Source: Candidatus Dojkabacteria bacterium
Lineage (GTDB): Bacteria > Patescibacteriota > Dojkabacteria > J137
Assembly: GCA_041750555.1 (NCBI GenBank)
Contig: JBGSZB010000016.1
Coordinates: 19,725-83,724 of the forward strand
DNA length: 64,000 nt
Reading direction: 5' to 3'
Shown here: positions 8,875-63,152 of the stretch, in pieces
Layout of the letters: each line of letters opens with the position of its first letter
Position numbering within the stretch: the first letter of the stretch is position 1
Program-made: the position numbers and the translations under genes
Notes under the pieces: generated by a model
What the model was told of the DNA's origin: nothing
Seen by the model: the letters and a program-made list of their open reading frames with translations, nothing else
The model's database searches: none

Positions 8875-10209
8875 ATGAAGGACAATAAATTATCAGGTGA
8901 ACCTACGTCAAGACCAGTAGAAATGGTTTTTGTAAGTGATGGCGGATTACTAGGTAATGAAATTACGTACTTAGCTCAATTTGGAGATATAAATATAATC
9001 TCTGAAGAATTTATGCTTAATGAAGTTAGAGCAGCAATTTTTTCTGAGCTTATTAAAACTTGGTCTCTTTTAAGATTTAGAGGAATAACCCCATACTTTA
9101 GTATATTTGATGCATACAGTATTGCATCTACCTTAGAAGAGGAAAAACTAATGGAATATGTAAGAGATGTTGATGATATACGGTCGGCAAGGTTAGCGAA
9201 TGGCCTAAGAGAGGAAAGCGCAAATAGCGATTTAGATATGTTGGCAGGAGATATCTGTAAAAGAATATTTTTTATTGTTGATAAGATTGACCCATATACA
9301 GGAGAAATTACCCAAGTAGTTCAATTAAAAAAGACAGATATGTTTAAAGCTAGAGATTTAGTTAAAGCTAAAGAAAGAACATTAAAAAAAGCTAAGGGTG
9401 GAATGCAGGACTATGACCTTGAATTAATAGGAAGGATAAAAAAGTTAAGTACTATTCTAGATAAACTTCCTCATATACTACTAAATACAATAATACTTCC
9501 ATTAACTCAAGAGGAAAGTGACGCTATTAAAAATATAGGGAGATCAATTCAACTACATTATGATACATTGAATTGTTCTCGAGGGATTGTAAAGAATTTT
9601 GAAGAAGCTTCAATTGAATTTGATACTAATGTTTTAGAATGGATAAGAATATCAAAAGGTAGAATTGAAAGAATAAATGAAATATTAGCAGGTTTACCTG
9701 TGGGAAACACACTAGTTTCATCAGGTTCTTCTGCAATATACCAATTTGCAGAGTATATAAAAGTAGAAAATGTAAATTTTGGCGTTAAGCATGCAAAAGT
9801 ATATGCCCCATTTCAATATTTAGTTAACCTACAAATATCAATAGATAGAGGTGATATGTACGAGAACGTTAATATTATTAAAAACAGGCTATATCTTTCC
9901 CACTATCTATATGGAGCTTTAATTGCTGAACATAGTTTAGGTAACCAAGACGCTGCAGAAATATCTATAGCTTTAATAAATTCACTATCAGATGAGCAAA
10001 TTAATAAATTAATAAGTGAGTTTAATAATGATAAACAGAGAAGAGGATTAACTAAGTTAATGGTTACGCTTTTTGGAAATGATTATGATATAGGTTCAAG
10101 AAGTATATTAAAAAGAACCTGGGGTAATAACTTTGGTCATATACCTGAGGTGATTATTAATACAGAAGTAGTTGAGAATGCAAGAGATATTAATACTGCT
10201 GAAGCTTAA
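8875..10209 (+). CDS. hypothetical protein, no recognisable domain
   Basis: 444 aa uninterrupted ORF directly downstream of tRNA-Arg; soluble; no motif recognised. Confidence 0.5.
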   Translation: MKDNKLSGEPTSRPVEMVFVSDGGLLGNEITYLAQFGDINIISEEFMLNEVRAAIFSELIKTWSLLRFRGITPYFSIFDAYSIASTLEEEKLMEYVRDVDDIRSARLANGLREESANSDLDMLAGDICKRIFFIVDKIDPYTGEITQVVQLKKTDMFKARDLVKAKERTLKKAKGGMQDYDLELIGRIKKLSTILDKLPHILLNTIILPLTQEESDAIKNIGRSIQLHYDTLNCSRGIVKNFEEASIEFDTNVLEWIRISKGRIERINEILAGLPVGNTLVSSGSSAIYQFAEYIKVENVNFGVKHAKVYAPFQYLVNLQISIDRGDMYENVNIIKNRLYLSHYLYGALIAEHSLGNQDAAEISIALINSLSDEQINKLISEFNNDKQRRGLTKLMVTLFGNDYDIGSRSILKRTWGNNFGHIPEVIINTEVVENARDINTAEA

Positions 10210-10646
10210 TCTTTAGAGTATCTTCTATTAAGTAATGTTACTACAATAATAGCTAGAAATGCTAAGAAAGATAGTAATGGTATTGTTACAAAACCTAATA
10301 CTTCAAAATCAATTTGAGTACATGAAATACCATCTCCACAAGCTAAGAATTGAGTTCCAATAGAAAACTTTTGAACAATATAATGATATCCTGAAAATAA
10401 TAGTCCTGGAATACAAAGAGCAATAATATATTTAAAATTTAATTTATCTTTAAAAGATATAGCTACACTACTTAGAATAAATAGTGAATACATAAATATT
10501 CTTTGATACCAACATAAGTTACAGGGAGGTAATTTAACAACTTCACTAAAGTATAAACTTCCAAAAGTAGATACAAATGTTAAAAGGAATATAATATTTA
10601 GGCTGTTATCTCCTAAAAACTTTAGTAATTTATTAATAATCTTCAC
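10206..10646 (-). CDS. DsbB/BdbC-like disulfide bond formation protein
   Basis: PPCNLCWYQRIFMY (CxxC followed by YQR) in TM1-2 loop region; second Cys pair CGDGISC; 4 TM helices; 146 aa. Confidence 0.55.
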   Translation of the reverse strand: MKIINKLLKFLGDNSLNIIFLLTFVSTFGSLYFSEVVKLPPCNLCWYQRIFMYSLFILSSVAISFKDKLNFKYIIALCIPGLLFSGYHYIVQKFSIGTQFLACGDGISCTQIDFEVLGFVTIPLLSFLAFLAIIVVTLLNRRYSKD

Positions 10647-25494: not shown

Positions 25495-25608
25495 TATCCT
25501 GTAGTATTTTATTATTTGCATGTTTTAATTTAATTTTGTAATCTACTCAAAGTATAAAAACATAATGTGAAGAAGATTATTAATTTAAATATCAATATTT
25601 AACTCTTA

Positions 25609-25632
25609 AAGAGCCGGAAGGCTCTTTTTTTT
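25609..25632 (+). terminator. Rho-independent terminator
   Basis: Stem AGAGCC, loop GGAA, stem GGCTCT (extendable to 8 bp), followed by T8; ~115 nt after the pyrG stop. Confidence 0.7.
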
Positions 25633-31536: not shown

Positions 31537-31569
31537 TTTGACAAAAAAAAATTACTTAATATATAATTT

Positions 31570-31607
31570 AGCAGGTGATACATTCACCTGCTATTTTACT
31601 TTTTAAT
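31570..31607 (+). terminator. probable intrinsic terminator (9-bp stem AGCAGGTGA/TCACCTGCT, loop TACAT, T-rich tail)
   Basis: Perfect inverted repeat followed by ATTTTACTTTTT; sits between ORF 30379-31536 and hsp20. Confidence 0.5.
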
Positions 31608-32083: not shown

Positions 32084-32842
32084 TTAATCTCCCAAAGTTT
32101 TCTTTGGGAGATTTCTAATATTTCTAGTAGCGTGTTTAACTATCCATTTAGTATTTACATTATCACTTTTACTCCATTCATTAATTACTTTAATAGCATA
32201 ATCATAGTTATCTTTAAGCATATCATTTAAGTTATTAGCTACTGATTTTTTAACAAAGAGTATATTATCTTCTTTTAAATTATTTATTACACTTAATACT
32301 AATTCTGGATTTTTTATACTCTCATCTAATTTAAAGCTCCATGGTAATCTAGATCTAACTCCTTCACTAGCTAATCTTCTAATATGAAAGTTAGAGTCCA
32401 ATGACCATTTTTTCATTAAGTTATATGTTTTCTTTGGATATTTTTTTAAAAATGGTCTAATTGCATATTCTCCAGTATTTCTTTTAGTTAATTCATATAT
32501 TGCATTTATACTTTCATCATAGTGATCTAATCCGTAAAGAATAATAAAAGTACTAATAGGGAGTAACCAATAATATTCTTTAAACATTCCAGTTTCTTTT
32601 AAATTTTCATTACCCATTATACTTATTAATATCTTAATAGCTTTAGAATATTCTTTAGGTAAATGTTTATGTAATGCTTTAGCTATTAATTCAACTCTAC
32701 CACTGTATTCTAGGTCTAAGTATTCCCTAGCTATGTAATTAATAAATGAAGTAGTATTAAATTCTGGATATTCCTTTATTATCTTTAAAGATAAATCTAT
32801 AGCTAATTGTGTATCAAACCAATCTTTTACTTTTTTAGTCAT
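32084..32842 (-). CDS. DNA alkylation repair enzyme family (AlkC/AlkD-like HEAT-repeat glycosylase)
   Basis: HEAT-like repeats; WSLDSNFHIRRLASEGVR and KKSVANNLND motifs typical of PF08713. Confidence 0.55.
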   Translation of the reverse strand: MTKKVKDWFDTQLAIDLSLKIIKEYPEFNTTSFINYIAREYLDLEYSGRVELIAKALHKHLPKEYSKAIKILISIMGNENLKETGMFKEYYWLLPISTFIILYGLDHYDESINAIYELTKRNTGEYAIRPFLKKYPKKTYNLMKKWSLDSNFHIRRLASEGVRSRLPWSFKLDESIKNPELVLSVINNLKEDNILFVKKSVANNLNDMLKDNYDYAIKVINEWSKSDNVNTKWIVKHATRNIRNLPKKTLGD

Positions 32843-57030: not shown

Positions 57031-58551
57031 ATGAATTCAATACTCTCTAGTAAAAATACAACTTTCCAAGAAAAAATCATTAATGCATCTAAACTACCTG
57101 GTTGTTATCTATACAAAGATAATAGGGGTAAAGTATTGTATGTTGGTAAAGCTAAAGTGTTAGTTAATAGAGTTAAAAGCTACTTCATTAACTATAAAAA
57201 GCTAGATATCAAAATACAACAAATGTTAGATCAGGCTTTTGATATAGAATTAATAACTGTAGATTCAGAGATTGAGGCTTTAATTCTAGAAACTAACTTA
57301 ATAAAGAAATATAAACCTAAATATAACTCATTAATGATAGATGATAAAAACTATACATGGGTTAAATTTGAGAAATATATTAAAGGTGTTAAAGATTTTC
57401 CAAGAATAAAACTTGTTAGAGAAAAGTTAGATGATGGAAGTGAATACTTTGGACCATTCCCAGATAGAGTTCCATTAAGAAATGTTTTAAAAAGACTTAG
57501 GAAGGTATTTCCATATGTAACTTGTAATAGGAAATTAATACAAAAAACAGATAATCCCTTACTTATAGAAACTAATAATAGTACTCCATGTTTGTACTAC
57601 CATATAGGATTATGTAATGCTCCATGTGCCAGTTTAGAATCTAGAGATGATTATTTAAAAAGATTTAATGAAATTAAGAGATTTTTTAGAGGAGAAAAGC
57701 TAAGTATTATTAATTCCCTAGAACGGGAGATGGGTAGCTTTTCAAAAATTAAAAACTATGAAGAAGCTGCAATAATTAGAGATAAGATAAATGATATTAA
57801 ATATGTAACTAAAAATATTAGAATTGATAGTGATGTAGATGATATTGTTGTATCTAATTTAAAACTAGAGGAGAGGAGAGAAGGTTTAAATCAATTAATT
57901 GAAGAATTAAAGTTCCCAAGTGATAAATTAAGTTACCATAAAGATTTTAAAATAGAGTGTTATGACATTAGTAATATTCAAGGTAGTAATCCAGTTGGAG
58001 CTATGACTGTAATGATTAATGGTAGTTTATCTCCAAGTCTTTACAGAAAATTTAAGATTAGGGGGAAGAATACTCCTAATGATTTTTTTATGCTTCAAGA
58101 GATGCTTACAAGAAGATTTAGCCATGTAAATATTAATACCATACAAAATTCAGATATAGTTTTAAATGATAATTTGGAAAATATTGAAGATTATAAAGAG
58201 AGTAAAGATATTGATCCATCATTTAGTGTACTACCTGATTTAATAATAATAGATGGAGGTAAAGGGCAATTAAGTTCAAGTTATAAAATTTTATACAATT
58301 TAGGATTACATAATATTATTCCAATAATTGGTTTAGCTAAAAGAGATGAAGAAGTTTTTAAATTAACTCATCAATTTAGAGAAGATTTTAGTGAATACAA
58401 TTTAGAATTTGAAAAAGTATTTACAAGAATATATCTACCTAGAAGATCAGAAAGTCTTTACTTAGTTCAAAGAATTAGAGATGAAGCTCATAGATTCGGA
58501 ATAACATTTCATAGAAAATTAAGATCTCAGAGTTTAATTAAGAAAGATTAA
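57031..58551 (+). CDS. uvrC: excinuclease ABC subunit C (short form)
   Basis: N-terminal GIY-YIG (PGCYLYKDNRGKVLYVGKAK...R...E); UvrC C-terminal RNase-H-like region; 506 aa. Confidence 0.85.
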   Translation: MNSILSSKNTTFQEKIINASKLPGCYLYKDNRGKVLYVGKAKVLVNRVKSYFINYKKLDIKIQQMLDQAFDIELITVDSEIEALILETNLIKKYKPKYNSLMIDDKNYTWVKFEKYIKGVKDFPRIKLVREKLDDGSEYFGPFPDRVPLRNVLKRLRKVFPYVTCNRKLIQKTDNPLLIETNNSTPCLYYHIGLCNAPCASLESRDDYLKRFNEIKRFFRGEKLSIINSLEREMGSFSKIKNYEEAAIIRDKINDIKYVTKNIRIDSDVDDIVVSNLKLEERREGLNQLIEELKFPSDKLSYHKDFKIECYDISNIQGSNPVGAMTVMINGSLSPSLYRKFKIRGKNTPNDFFMLQEMLTRRFSHVNINTIQNSDIVLNDNLENIEDYKESKDIDPSFSVLPDLIIIDGGKGQLSSSYKILYNLGLHNIIPIIGLAKRDEEVFKLTHQFREDFSEYNLEFEKVFTRIYLPRRSESLYLVQRIRDEAHRFGITFHRKLRSQSLIKKD

Positions 58552-59427: not shown

Positions 59428-60315
59428 ATGACTAATACTAAAAGATTAGAACAAAAATTAGATAACCAAAACTTAATCTGGGCTTTGGATAAATATGCAG
59501 ATTTTGGAGTTTTACATTTATATAAAGAGTTATCTCAGGATGAAGAGAGTAATTTAAATGAGGTTAAATCTCTTTCAAATTCTTTATTAACTAAATATGA
59601 ACTTAAAGGTATTTATTTAAAAAAGAGATATATTAATGATCCTAAACTTGATAATTTAACCGTATTAGTTGCAGGAGTTGAATCAGAAGACGAAATTATT
59701 GTAATAGAAAATGATATTAAGTTTATTATAAGACTTAAAGATAAATTAGATGTTGGATTATTTTTAGATCATAGAATTTCAAGAGAACTAATTCAGGGTT
59801 ATTCAAAGAATAAAGATGTTTTAAATCTATTTAGCTATACTTCATCTTTTAGTGTTTATGCTGCCCTTAATGGTGCTAAAACTACTACAAGTGTAGATTT
59901 ATCTAATACTTATTGTTTATGGTCTCAAAAAAACTTTGAAATTAATGATTTAAAAGTTAATTACAATAATTCAGATAGTAGTGCTACTAACTATATTTGG
60001 AAAGAGGATGTTTTTGATTTTATTAATGTTTGTATAGAAACTAATACAACTTATGACATTATAGTTTTAGATCCTCCATCATTTTCTAGAAATAAGGGTA
60101 AAGTATTTAGTATTCAAAAAGATCATGAAGAGTTAATTAGAAATATTCAAAATCACCTATTAAATCCTGGAGGTATTTTATTCTTTAGTAATAACTTAAG
60201 TGATTTCCAATTAAGTAAATATATTAGACCAGGAGCTGATAAATTAACTAAAAAAACTATTCCTGAAGAATTTTTACCATACAGAGCTCATCAATCTTTT
60301 GCTTTCTATAACTAA
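59428..60315 (+). CDS. class I SAM-dependent rRNA methyltransferase (RlmI/RlmK-like)
   Basis: VLNLFSYTSSFSVYAA and IIVLDPPSF (DPPxF) motifs. Confidence 0.7.
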   Translation: MTNTKRLEQKLDNQNLIWALDKYADFGVLHLYKELSQDEESNLNEVKSLSNSLLTKYELKGIYLKKRYINDPKLDNLTVLVAGVESEDEIIVIENDIKFIIRLKDKLDVGLFLDHRISRELIQGYSKNKDVLNLFSYTSSFSVYAALNGAKTTTSVDLSNTYCLWSQKNFEINDLKVNYNNSDSSATNYIWKEDVFDFINVCIETNTTYDIIVLDPPSFSRNKGKVFSIQKDHEELIRNIQNHLLNPGGILFFSNNLSDFQLSKYIRPGADKLTKKTIPEEFLPYRAHQSFAFYN

Positions 60316-60316
60316 A

Positions 60317-60335
60317 TGACATCATTTTGATGTCA
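60317..60335. promoter_or_regulatory. perfect inverted repeat TGACATCA-ttt-TGATGTCA, probable toxin-antitoxin operator
   Basis: Read directly; lies 43 bp upstream of the antitoxin ATG; TATAAT at 60342-60347. Confidence 0.45.
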
Positions 60336-60377
60336 ATATGATATAATAATACATATTAAATGTAATATTTTTATATT

Positions 60378-60644
60378 ATGTCAACTAAATTAAAAAGTAT
60401 AAGGTTTCCAAACACTGTTGTAAGTGTTTTAGATGATTATTCTAAAAAGAATTACGGTATTTCATTTTCAAAGTATATTGTGCACTTAGCTATTGATAAA
60501 GTAGAAGAGATTAACTCTACATCAATTTCACTTCAGGATATATTTGAAGAAAGTGAAAATGATATAGTATCAGGGAATGCACTAATTCTTAAAGATGAGG
60601 AGAGTGTAAAATCCTATCTTAATAGTTTAAAGGAAGATGAATAA
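60378..60644 (+). CDS. putative antitoxin (DinJ/RelB-like) of a type II TA pair
   Basis: 88 aa, overlaps the downstream toxin gene by 8 nt; the assignment rests on position. Confidence 0.5.
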   Translation: MSTKLKSIRFPNTVVSVLDDYSKKNYGISFSKYIVHLAIDKVEEINSTSISLQDIFEESENDIVSGNALILKDEESVKSYLNSLKEDE

Positions 60645-60921
60645 ATATAGTCTTTATTTTTCCAACGAGTTTAAAAGAAACTATAAATCTTTTAAGAAAA
60701 GAAGGGATACACAATACAAAATTGATGATGTAATTGTTCTAATTGGGAAAGACCCCTACAGTAAAGGACTTAAATCTCATATGGTTAACCTTTCTAAAAT
60801 TGGTAAATGTTGGAGTTCAAGAGTTGATGGTGATATTAGAATTATATGGACATTTAGTAAAAAGGATACCAACATAATTATTGTATTAAGAGTAGGAGGA
60901 CATGATATTGTATATAGCTAA
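60637..60921 (+). CDS. YafQ/RelE/ParE-superfamily type II toxin (mRNA interferase)
   Basis: FKRNYKSFKKR...KDPYSKGLKSHMVNLSKIGKCWSSRVDGDIRIIWTFSKKDTNIIIVLRVGGHDIVY parallels the YafQ fold motifs (kdH.L.G....R.cHi.pDwlLIY........l.RtGsH). Confidence 0.75.
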   Translation: MNKYSLYFSNEFKRNYKSFKKRRDTQYKIDDVIVLIGKDPYSKGLKSHMVNLSKIGKCWSSRVDGDIRIIWTFSKKDTNIIIVLRVGGHDIVYS

Positions 60922-60957: not shown

Positions 60958-61362
60958 ATGGATTTAGCAGGATTACCTACAAACATTTCTTACTCTGATG
61001 GAGAATTTAACCCTAATAATATTGTTTTAGGTTCAAGCTTTGAGAAACTTCATAGAATGCATTTATTTCCAGATTCTGAGAGAGTGAGGAAACATATTAT
61101 TAAAGCTAAATTAGGTAAAAGTGGAGTATATAGAGTTAAGGGACTAGAGTTTCAAATTCCATATAGTGGCATTATCAATATACCAGGAATAATTATTGAA
61201 AATTGTGATATAGAAAAATTAGATTGTTTTAGAGTGTTAATAATTGAATATTGTGAGTGTGAAAGTAGCTTTAGAGTAAGATTAGCAGAGTATAGTGAGG
61301 TTAATGGGTTAGTTAGTATTAATGAAGTTTCAGATTTAATTAATGAATTAATTGAAGCTTAA
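60958..61362 (+). CDS. hypothetical protein
   Basis: 134 aa ORF, convergent with the ligase. Confidence 0.35.
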   Translation: MDLAGLPTNISYSDGEFNPNNIVLGSSFEKLHRMHLFPDSERVRKHIIKAKLGKSGVYRVKGLEFQIPYSGIINIPGIIIENCDIEKLDCFRVLIIEYCECESSFRVRLAEYSEVNGLVSINEVSDLINELIEA

Positions 61363-63152
61363 TCTTTAGCTTTTCTTAACTCATACATTCTAATTATTTC
61401 ACTTACGTTATTTGGATAATCACGATCAACTCTGTTCCATATCTTCATTCTTGGAAATCTTATTGATAAGCCTTTAGTTGAATCATCGTTTTTAACTTTA
61501 GAAGATATATTAATAGCTGCAGTATGGTTAGGACTTCTAGTTATTTCATCAGCAATAATTTCCATGATAATTTTTGGAGTTACCCAAACATCTGGAGTTA
61601 ATGAGTTATTTACTACATAATTTTTAGGCATTACGTTTGTTGAAATATTTTCTAAATCCTTATACATTGTATTCATTAATTCTTCACTAAAACCACTACC
61701 TACTTTTCCAATTGTATAGTATTTTTCATCCTCTGGGTTATATACTCCTGCTAAAAGAGTTCCAAAACCAAATCTAGATCTGTCTCCTTTACCTCTGTAA
61801 TACCCCAAAACTACTACATCTATAGTATCTACCATTTCTGTTAATGTATTAGCTTTTAATTTAATCCATTTAAAGTTTCTAGTACCTGGTTCATAATTTG
61901 TATTATTATCTTTAACAATAATTCCCTCTAAACCCCTACTAACTTTATCTCTAAAGTAACTCTCTAACTCTTCTAAGGTATTTATTCTTTTAGTTTCTAA
62001 CATCTCTAATGAATCTCTGTTATTCTTTAAAATATCTTCTAGTAACTTTAATCTTTCATCTATTGGTAATTCAGTTAAATCTTTTCCATTTAAATACAGA
62101 ATATCAAAACACATTGCTTTAACAGGTATATCTTTAGAAAATGTTTCAATTTCATACTTTCTTCTTCTTTTCATAGTATCTTGATAAGTTGCATAACCTA
62201 AATCTTTTACTCCAATTATCTCTGAATCTAATATTATTGATTTCACCCCAAGGGATTTTAAAGAAGTGGTTAACTCAGGAAACTGGTTAGTCATTAATTC
62301 CATATTCCTACTATATATTGCAACATTAGTATCTAATTCTTCGAAGTTATTAATAGAGTAGTGTAGTTGTCCTCTTAAACCATCTAATTTAGGTTGTACA
62401 TAACTATCATTCATTCTTTTAAATACAGATTCTGAATCTACTTCTCTTTCAACTAATTTAGATGCAACAGGCACTCCAGGTTTTAATTTAATAGTCTCTA
62501 ATGTTTTAATAACAAAATCTCTGTATTCAGTACTTTCTTTAATATTATCTAACTCTTTAACAAAACTTAATATTCCACCTAAGTCTGCATATTTACCATA
62601 AGCACTATCTAATATTTTTCTAATTGATTTATCTCCTGTTACATACCATGATATTGAATCTAATATTGTTTTATCACTCATACCAAGTCTTAAATCTCCA
62701 ACAATTATTCTTGTTACATATTTACTACTTTGAAAATCTAATTGAGTTATTAATTCTAAATATTTATTTATTTTATTCTCTTGAGAACCACTTCCACTAA
62801 TTACTGCTATCTCTTTTAATTTTTCAAATACAGTTGATATATCTAGATCTACCTCAACATTATCATTAAGTTTTAATTCTTCTATTAATGTTCCTAAATC
62901 TCCATATTTCTTATATTTTTCTAAAACATTACTGTATTTAGTATCTAGCGCTTTTACTATTAATTTAGATGAGAAGTTAAATTCCAATGGTACAAATTTT
63001 GGAGCTATACGTCCCATTATTAAATACATTGCAAGTCTAGATTCCTCTAATTGTAGAGAAGATATTAATTCACTTACAACAATTGTAATATCATTTCTAG
63101 ATGAGATATCTTCTATTTTTTTTAAGTAGTTTGAGAAATTTTTAAATGTCAT
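61359..63152 (-). CDS. lig: ATP-dependent DNA ligase (Lig I/archaeo-eukaryotic type)
   Basis: KLDGLRGQLHYS (KxDG adenylation motif I); nucleotidyltransferase and OB domains; 597 aa. Confidence 0.85.
   Translation of the reverse strand: MTFKNFSNYLKKIEDISSRNDITIVVSELISSLQLEESRLAMYLIMGRIAPKFVPLEFNFSSKLIVKALDTKYSNVLEKYKKYGDLGTLIEELKLNDNVEVDLDISTVFEKLKEIAVISGSGSQENKINKYLELITQLDFQSSKYVTRIIVGDLRLGMSDKTILDSISWYVTGDKSIRKILDSAYGKYADLGGILSFVKELDNIKESTEYRDFVIKTLETIKLKPGVPVASKLVEREVDSESVFKRMNDSYVQPKLDGLRGQLHYSINNFEELDTNVAIYSRNMELMTNQFPELTTSLKSLGVKSIILDSEIIGVKDLGYATYQDTMKRRRKYEIETFSKDIPVKAMCFDILYLNGKDLTELPIDERLKLLEDILKNNRDSLEMLETKRINTLEELESYFRDKVSRGLEGIIVKDNNTNYEPGTRNFKWIKLKANTLTEMVDTIDVVVLGYYRGKGDRSRFGFGTLLAGVYNPEDEKYYTIGKVGSGFSEELMNTMYKDLENISTNVMPKNYVVNNSLTPDVWVTPKIIMEIIADEITRSPNHTAAINISSKVKNDDSTKGLSIRFPRMKIWNRVDRDYPNNVSEIIRMYELRKAKD

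Follow-up and report, generated by a model that had tools for sequence, protein, structure and literature searches.

A predicted type II toxin-antitoxin operon in Candidatus Dojkabacteria: a RelE-superfamily toxin, a ribbon-helix-helix antitoxin of a rare sequence lineage and a candidate palindromic operator

Does a pair of small overlapping genes in an uncultured, AT-rich genome encode a toxin and its antitoxin, and does the palindrome in front of them serve as their operator? The pair and the palindrome occupy positions 60317-60921 of a 64,000-nucleotide (nt) stretch of DNA from a Candidatus Dojkabacteria bacterium (GenBank assembly GCA_041750555.1, contig JBGSZB010000016.1, positions 19,725 to 83,724), which is called the window below and is numbered from its first letter. 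A preliminary description made from the DNA letters had read the locus as a toxin-antitoxin (TA) module of type II with a YafQ/RelE-type toxin, and our analysis supports that reading. Judged from sequence comparison and from analogy with characterized systems, the locus is probably a chromosomal type II TA operon with a putative ribonuclease (RNase) toxin, a neutralizing ribbon-helix-helix (RHH) antitoxin and autorepression. The operator step is the least secure part of this reading, and the operator role that had been given to the palindrome is plausible only.

The two genes, both open reading frames (ORFs) that run from ATG to TAA, are the following.

60378-60644, plus strand: antitoxin gene (ORF A), 88 amino acids (aa).
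60637-60921, plus strand: toxin gene (ORF T), 94 aa.

Direct reading of the letters and the ORF list both show that ORF A and ORF T share 8 nt at 60637-60644, which read ATGAATAA. An overlap of this length had been described before and was found; it had also been called ATGA-type, and in this respect the description has to be corrected, as the shared sequence is not the 4-nt ATGA type. Because two intact, full-length and co-oriented genes overlap by 8 nt, the pair is almost certainly co-transcribed, and translational coupling of the two genes is likely.

The downstream 94-aa protein can be assigned by sequence similarity to the RelE/ParE superfamily of toxins. Its matches to curated models, with expect values (E) and with scores given against the family cutoffs, are listed here.

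Pfam YafQ_toxin (PF15738): E 2e-6, 28.5 bits against a cutoff of 30 bits.
Pfam YoeB_toxin: E 1.4e-3, 19 bits against a cutoff of 27 bits.
NCBIfam TIGR02116 (Txe/YoeB): E 1.5e-5, 25.1 against a cutoff of 51.8.
NCBIfam RelE_StbE: E 4e-3, 17.5 against a cutoff of 27.9.
NCBIfam TIGR00053 (YafQ): E 9e-3, 16.6 against a cutoff of 87.25.
PHROG 1213 RelE-like toxin: E 4e-6, no cutoff given.

The superfamily matches, sub-cutoff as they are, are mutually consistent. When the protein was compared with plasmids by tblastn, toxins at 30-36% identity were recovered, the best of them (E 2e-6) an annotated RelE/StbE toxin. The plasmid matches are annotated as RelE/StbE (Picosynechococcus, Gloeothece) and in one case as YafQ family (Phocaeicola), and each has a small overlapping upstream gene.

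Some results weigh against this assignment. The toxin scores under every curated family cutoff. A profile made only from the toxin subfamily described below, when run against solved structures, places YoeB first (E 2e-3) and leaves YafQ and HP0892 above 0.01, which is a weak reach. The single-sequence AlphaFold2 (AF2) model is unusable, with a predicted local distance difference test (pLDDT) value of 47, and the order of its secondary structure elements is compatible with a microbial-RNase-like fold. Strong matches to the structures of HP0892, HP0894 and YafQ (E about 1e-11) were obtained with a profile containing the Phocaeicola YafQ-family sequence, and we discounted them because the subfamily-only profile fails to reproduce them. 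Single-sequence searches of the PDB with the toxin and with the antitoxin found nothing, and word-indexed homologue searches with both proteins returned only the queries themselves. By score, then, the protein lies outside the YafQ family in the strict sense, below the cutoffs of both YafQ models. The convincing YafQ/RelE signature of the preliminary description is retained at the level of the RelE/ParE superfamily and not at that of YafQ. Since strict YafQ membership fails, RelE-superfamily, YafQ/YoeB-like is the label that we find defensible on the sequence matches.

A degenerate-pattern scan with the motif [VI][TD]GD[IL]R[IL]IW over 185,579 species genomes recovered 85 related toxin loci in species-representative genomes, many of them in Patescibacteria, Chloroflexota, Melainabacteria and metagenome-assembled genomes labeled Gammaproteobacteria. 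These toxins form a distinct subfamily with the motif SSRVTGDIRIIW. In an alignment of 27 subfamily members, P40, L45, H48, S60, S61, G65, D66, R68, I70, W71 and H89 are invariant and F12, I81, G87, V92 and Y93 nearly so; the window toxin keeps every subfamily-invariant residue. Most relatives (loci L013-L092) carry an insertion of 3-4 residues after the conserved His and before the C-terminal Val-Tyr (GGHSGxxKVY), which is absent from the window toxin (GGHDIVYS), from the toxin of locus L007 and from two others.

The YafQ, RelE and YoeB proteins of E. coli, whose catalytic residues have experimentally defined or proposed roles (PMC4652777), were added to the 27-member alignment, and the numbering was corrected for positions that the fixed-length alignment had dropped. 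The catalytic positions correspond as follows.

Toxin H48: YafQ H50, YoeB E46, none in RelE.
Toxin R62: YafQ H63, YoeB R59, none in RelE; variable in the subfamily (R/S/W/K/I/F).
Toxin D66: YafQ D67, YoeB E63, none in RelE.
Toxin R68: YafQ I69 (non-catalytic), YoeB R65, RelE R61.
Toxin H89: YafQ H87, YoeB H83, RelE R81.
Toxin Y93: YafQ F91, none in YoeB, RelE Y87.

Measured against the active-site set of YafQ (H50, H63, D67, H87, F91), the window toxin has equivalents of H50, D67 and H87, a Tyr in place of F91 and an Arg in place of H63. The candidate active site consists of H48, D66, R68, H89 and Y93, with R62 in parentheses, and the alignment of catalytic positions points to a site that would be a hybrid of those of YafQ, YoeB and RelE. 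Loss of the catalytic positions, on which the preliminary description had made its reading depend, is not seen: four of them (H48, D66, R68 and H89) do not vary across the 27 members, and the fifth, Y93, hardly varies.

The same residues bear on the mode of action. The toxin could be a ParE-type gyrase poison instead of a messenger RNA (mRNA) endonuclease, and 3 of the 27 subfamily members match ParE. Pfam YafQ_toxin is matched by 24 of the 27 (E<=0.01, best 2.3e-7) and YoeB by 9, the window toxin has no ParE_toxin match even at E<=1, and the conserved His, Asp, Arg, His and Tyr of the subfamily align with positions at which YafQ, YoeB and RelE have RNase catalytic residues. We regard a gyrase poison as highly improbable.

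The upstream 88-aa protein is predicted to begin with a strand at about K6-P11 and helices at 12-26 and 30-48, followed in its C-terminal part by helices at 52-64 and 74-86 with the motif DIVSG...EESVKSYLNSL. AF2 with an 11-sequence alignment gave a model with a pLDDT of 78 (above 90 for residues 11-30), in which an extended N-terminus precedes four helices. The N-terminal part is predicted from these features to be an RHH DNA-binding domain. The preliminary description had proposed a search with hidden Markov models (HMMs) of the RelB, DinJ and RHH families; no RHH or antitoxin model in Pfam (PF04221 included) or PADLOC matched the protein directly. The NCBIfam model YlcI_YnfO_N reached E 0.09 only, which is at noise level, and single members of the antitoxin family gave weak NikA-like and SeqA_N matches. 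There was no match to plasmids by tblastn and no meaningful match of the antitoxin profile to PDB sequences. Comparison with E. coli DinJ by hhalign was not significant (E 0.2-0.4), nor was that with RelB. BLASTP against the upstream ORFs of the plasmid toxin homologues was likewise not significant and gave no support to a tail similarity seen there by eye.

The antitoxin lineage itself is rare. When 1.84 billion cluster representatives were searched exhaustively with HMMER, four genuine relatives at 29-51% identity came out, and the antitoxin profile search brought together 11 proteins in all. A 2218-aa protein (P0004) scored E 2.8e-11 against the antitoxin without any aligned stretch; it is most likely a compositional artefact and was ignored. 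A narrower antitoxin alignment found no relative in the contigs of species-representative genomes, among which the source genome is not included. The link to other antitoxins was obtained by profile comparison: in hhalign the window antitoxin group aligned end to end, tail included, with the NikA-like-headed antitoxins that accompany the toxin subfamily elsewhere (probability 96%, E 1.8e-9, 84 columns). An HMM of the tail alone located its match in the window antitoxin at residues 49-84 (empirical p about 0.004), and the profile of the partner antitoxins matched the RHH domains of NikA (4e-3), Arc (0.04) and MazE6 (0.05). By these comparisons the two-helix C-terminal tail and the tails of the antitoxins found with the toxin subfamily elsewhere are homologous, and the 88-aa protein is, on sequence and model grounds, an RHH antitoxin of DinJ/ParD-like architecture from a rare, uncurated sequence lineage.

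Homologous loci argue on the same comparative grounds that the toxin-antitoxin pairing is conserved in other genomes. An antitoxin homologue is followed by a toxin homologue in L007, L010 and L011; in L007 the toxin homologue is an overlapping ORF (1488-1778) with the motif YSSRVTGDIRLIW...GGHNDVC. In L008 and L009 the toxin N-terminus begins before the contig end, which is partial evidence, and on the JGI contig of P0003 a 94-aa gene, known by its length only and not by sequence comparison, follows the antitoxin homologue. On the toxin side, a small upstream ORF is present at 68 of the 76 species-genome loci that have a toxin ORF. The heads of these partner antitoxins vary: there are weak NikA-like hits as well as matches to Pfam RHH_1 (21.1 bits; cutoff, 20.5) and to RelB/DinJ PF04221 (E 3.8e-17). 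What the partners have in common is the C-terminal motif ETEKRIGxSLxDIxxGxY...EL..YL.SL. The preliminary description had also staked its reading on conservation of the upstream ORF in homologous loci, and the pairing in L007, L010 and L011 together with the hhalign result bears this out.

Some relatives of the antitoxin have no toxin beside them. L012 has an antitoxin homologue without a toxin, and the toxin-less homologues P0010 and P0005 (L005 319-600 and L006 174-464) keep the N-terminal domain and have a different C-terminus. The solo copies in L005 and L006 each face a convergent OGG/HhH-GPD glycosylase gene and are preceded by repeated GTTAAC-type palindromes; from their sequences they are possibly domesticated, antitoxin-derived regulators. 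Such copies lend some substance to the idea that the window pair is a decaying or domesticated remnant, with an inactive toxin and an 88-aa protein that is only an RHH transcription factor, and the pair is also fully host-like in composition (27-28% GC; GC content at third codon positions 0.18-0.21 versus 0.12-0.15 in neighboring genes). Both window ORFs are full length, however, all subfamily-invariant toxin residues are retained, and the window antitoxin keeps the C-terminal toxin-binding motif, in place of which P0005, P0008 and P0010, the solo homologues, have other sequence. A remnant is therefore very unlikely.

We now turn to the second question, that of the palindrome. The elements upstream of the antitoxin gene are as follows.

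60317-60335: perfect 8-3-8 inverted repeat TGACATCA-ttt-TGATGTCA, candidate operator.
60339-60347, plus strand: extended -10 element TGaTATAAT (TG at 60339-60340, TATAAT at 60342-60347).
60378-60384, plus strand: ATGTCAA, possible third half-site, the same as the outer 7 nt of the right-arm region (60330-60336) and overlapping the antitoxin start codon.

The perfect 8-3-8 palindrome reported earlier is real, and the nearby TATAAT that had been noticed is present and is in fact part of an extended -10. The palindrome ends 3 nt upstream of the extended -10 and 6 nt from the TATAAT hexamer, its arm centers are 11 bp apart, and it is single-copy in the window even when up to 3 mismatches are allowed. 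With a transcription start near 60354, some 7 nt past the -10, the palindrome would span about -37 to -19. A canonical -35 was not found (ATGACA at 60316-60321 would require a 20-nt spacer), and the TGaTATAAT site went unreported in a promoter scan for which both hexamers must be present. The sequence ATGTCAA occurs in 6 copies on both strands of the 64 kb, two of which sit 48 nt apart at the pair, a post hoc observation to which we give weak weight.

How far does the palindrome exceed chance? When perfect inverted repeats with arms of 8 nt and a loop of 0-10 nt are counted in the window, which has 28.5% GC, the total is 59 versus 41±7 in dinucleotide shuffles, and 12 versus 4.5±2.2 if at least 3 G/C per arm are required. 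The a priori chance of an 8-nt-arm repeat in a given 62-nt spacer is about 0.04, or 0.004 for the G/C-containing class. Because an arm of at least 8 also arises in 94 of 1000 dinucleotide shuffles of the 115-nt region upstream, the palindrome taken by itself exceeds chance only marginally (p about 0.04-0.09).

It is possible, then, that the TA module is real and that its palindrome is something other than an operator, either an RNA hairpin (terminator or stabilizer) that ends the mRNA of the upstream methyltransferase gene or a chance repeat in AT-rich DNA. Several observations pull in this direction and count against an operator. The palindrome begins 2 nt past the TAA stop codon of the methyltransferase ORF. 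It folds as an 8-bp RNA hairpin (folding z-score of 60300-60380, -3.5), and a terminator scan flags it, though on the minus strand, as terminator-like. The window has roughly one perfect 8-nt inverted repeat per kb, and the 9% of local shuffles that yield one leave the palindrome alone short of significance at 5%. The close relative L009 has no upstream palindrome. Against the hairpin, the plus strand lacks a T-run after the palindrome stem, and the clear terminator-like hairpins of the window (25608-25627, 31569-31597 and 32087-32118) are longer, GC-richer, flanked by A/T-runs and located at gene ends; these look like the intrinsic terminators of the genome, and the palindrome of the pair is unlike them in style. 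The palindrome also adjoins the extended -10 element directly.

The relatives supply further evidence. Where the window has its palindrome, L005, L006, L007 and L008 have inverted or repeated motifs of their own, located about 50-62 nt ahead of the start codon. The repeats are TGTTAA-N7-TTAACA in L005, TTGTTAAC-N5-GTTAACAA plus a further GTTAACA copy in L006, ATATTATT-tt-AATAATAT in L007 and TATGCA-N7-TGCATA in L008, and in L005, L006 and L008 a -10-like hexamer follows. In the closely related L005 and L006, the GTTAAC-type repeats persist despite diverged flanks. Across the family, perfect upstream inverted repeats are enriched: arms of at least 8 nt are present at 11 of 75 loci versus 3.4±1.9 in shuffles, and arms of at least 7 nt at 18 of 75 versus 9.8±2.6, with the limit that some of these repeats, such as that at L077, are clearly terminators belonging to upstream genes. 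We somewhat favor the operator role because of the position of the palindrome at the extended -10 and the family-wide enrichment of upstream inverted repeats; on this comparative evidence it is plausible and not established, and a hairpin or chance repeat is the unlikely, though still realistic, alternative.

The mechanism that we propose for the operon is borrowed from the YafQ, YoeB and RelE families and from what RHH repressors do. Free toxin would enter the ribosomal A site, cleave mRNA and arrest translation. H48 would act as general base and H89, tuned by D66, as general acid; transition-state stabilization would fall to R68, and stacking on the substrate base to Y93. The tail of the antitoxin would wrap the toxin and block it. 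Antitoxin dimers, with or without toxin, would reach with their N-terminal beta-ribbon into the major groove of the palindrome, which is 19 bp long and has its two arms centered 11 bp, or one helical turn, apart. Binding beside the extended -10 would keep the operon repressed. Once the labile antitoxin is lost, the toxin would be set free and the repression of transcription lifted.

Among known systems, DinJ-YafQ (E. coli b0226/b0225; the H. pylori HP0892 and HP0894 proteins are YafQ-type toxins) resembles the pair in gene order, with an RHH antitoxin first and a toxin of about 92 aa second. YafQ gives the window toxin its best curated HMM match, with H48, D66, H89 and Y93 of the window toxin in the places of YafQ H50, D67, H87 and F91, and the DinJ architecture of an RHH domain plus a toxin-wrapping tail resembles that of the window antitoxin. 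The window toxin differs from YafQ in scoring below the family cutoffs, in having an Arg, variable in the subfamily, at the H63 position, and in its invariant R68, which stands at the RelE R61/YoeB R65 position where YafQ has Ile. The window antitoxin in turn differs from DinJ in failing the RelB/DinJ Pfam model and in the non-significant hhalign comparison.

With YefM-YoeB, the window toxin shares a core motif (WSSRVDGDIRIIW parallels YoeB WSRRITEEHRLVY), and its H48, R68 and H89 correspond to YoeB E46, R65 and H83. The partner of YoeB, however, is an antitoxin of the Phd/YefM fold and that of the window toxin an RHH protein. As general base the window toxin would have His where YoeB has Glu, and the C-termini differ (GGHDIVYS versus RYHY). 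RelBE has, as is predicted for the window pair, an RHH antitoxin upstream of a ribosome-dependent RNase toxin and autoregulation at a palindromic operator. RelE R61 and Y87 correspond to R68 and Y93, whereas RelE K52 and K54 have no counterparts in the window toxin, RelE R81 is replaced by His and the RelE_StbE match reaches E 4e-3 only. RHH repressors of the Arc, CopG and ParD type have the N-terminal strand-helix-helix predicted for the window antitoxin, which has no direct sequence-model match. The Arc operator is 21 bp long and is bound by two dimers; its geometry, with half-sites one helical turn apart, is like that of the window palindrome.

The genes around the pair are the following.

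59428-60315, plus strand: methyltransferase ORF upstream of the pair (Pfam Methyltrans_SAM, E 1.6e-23).
60958-61362, plus strand: orphan 134-aa ORF between toxin and ligase genes, its 3' end overlapping the convergent ligase gene by 4 nt.
61359-63152, minus strand: ATP-dependent DNA ligase gene, beyond the orphan ORF.

The pair had been placed next to the DNA ligase locus; the ligase gene is indeed nearby, but the orphan ORF intervenes and the two are not immediate neighbors. The orphan ORF has a TATAAT 14 nt ahead of its ATG, has no Pfam, NCBIfam, PHROG or PADLOC match and forms a singleton cluster. We considered it as a third component of the module, for example a chaperone, and rejected it because it has no family match and is absent from all other loci. 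A link of the pair to the ligase locus or to defense systems was also considered, and PADLOC gave no match for either pair protein. The methyltransferase additionally scores against mad2, a PADLOC model for a methylation-associated defense system (E 4.8e-14), which is probably generic methyltransferase-domain similarity. An Rfam scan of the window found two transfer RNAs and nothing else.

Shine-Dalgarno (SD)-like motifs were observed no more than 22 nt upstream in only 2 of 60 long window ORFs, and in many ORFs (for example 862-1449, 10206-10646, 57031-58551 and 60958-61362) the start codon is preceded, at 8-15 nt, by a TATAAT-like hexamer. This suggests, as far as sequence goes, that translation in this genome is mostly SD-independent, on short leaders or leaderless. 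With SD motifs so scarce in the window, the AAGGAAG ahead of the toxin start may therefore be coincidental. The five window proteins that were checked, UvrC and the DNA ligase included, each stand alone as a cluster at 90% identity in a set of about 15 billion proteins, and the pair was seen in only one other place, a 1,084-nt Logan contig from SRR28170474.

A broader reading, which we hold tentatively and would put somewhat short of even, is that the window toxin and its roughly 85 relatives are a separate, uncharacterized clade of ribosome-dependent RNases with its own cleavage specificity. The hybrid site of such a clade might combine a His/Asp/His set of YafQ type with an Arg of YoeB/RelE type and a Ser-Ser pair that is invariant. 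The antitoxins of the clade would be modular, with one conserved toxin-binding tail and interchangeable DNA-binding heads, of which the window antitoxin would carry a very rare RHH head, and the lineage of that head may survive also as toxin-less regulators beside an OGG repair gene.

Apart from the very rare, unnamed sequence family of its antitoxin, the pair is an ordinary RelE-type TA module. It does not imply a new mechanism and adds little beyond annotation, and its mildly novel points are confined to the toxin subfamily, which is uncurated, and the antitoxin head, which is very rare. Two unnamed ORFs of an uncultured AT-rich genome can now receive the labels RelE-superfamily toxin and RHH antitoxin. 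The toxin subfamily is frequent in Patescibacteria and other uncultured lineages and is barely caught by curated models, which miss the antitoxin family, and the finding is of use for TA catalogues and HMM libraries.

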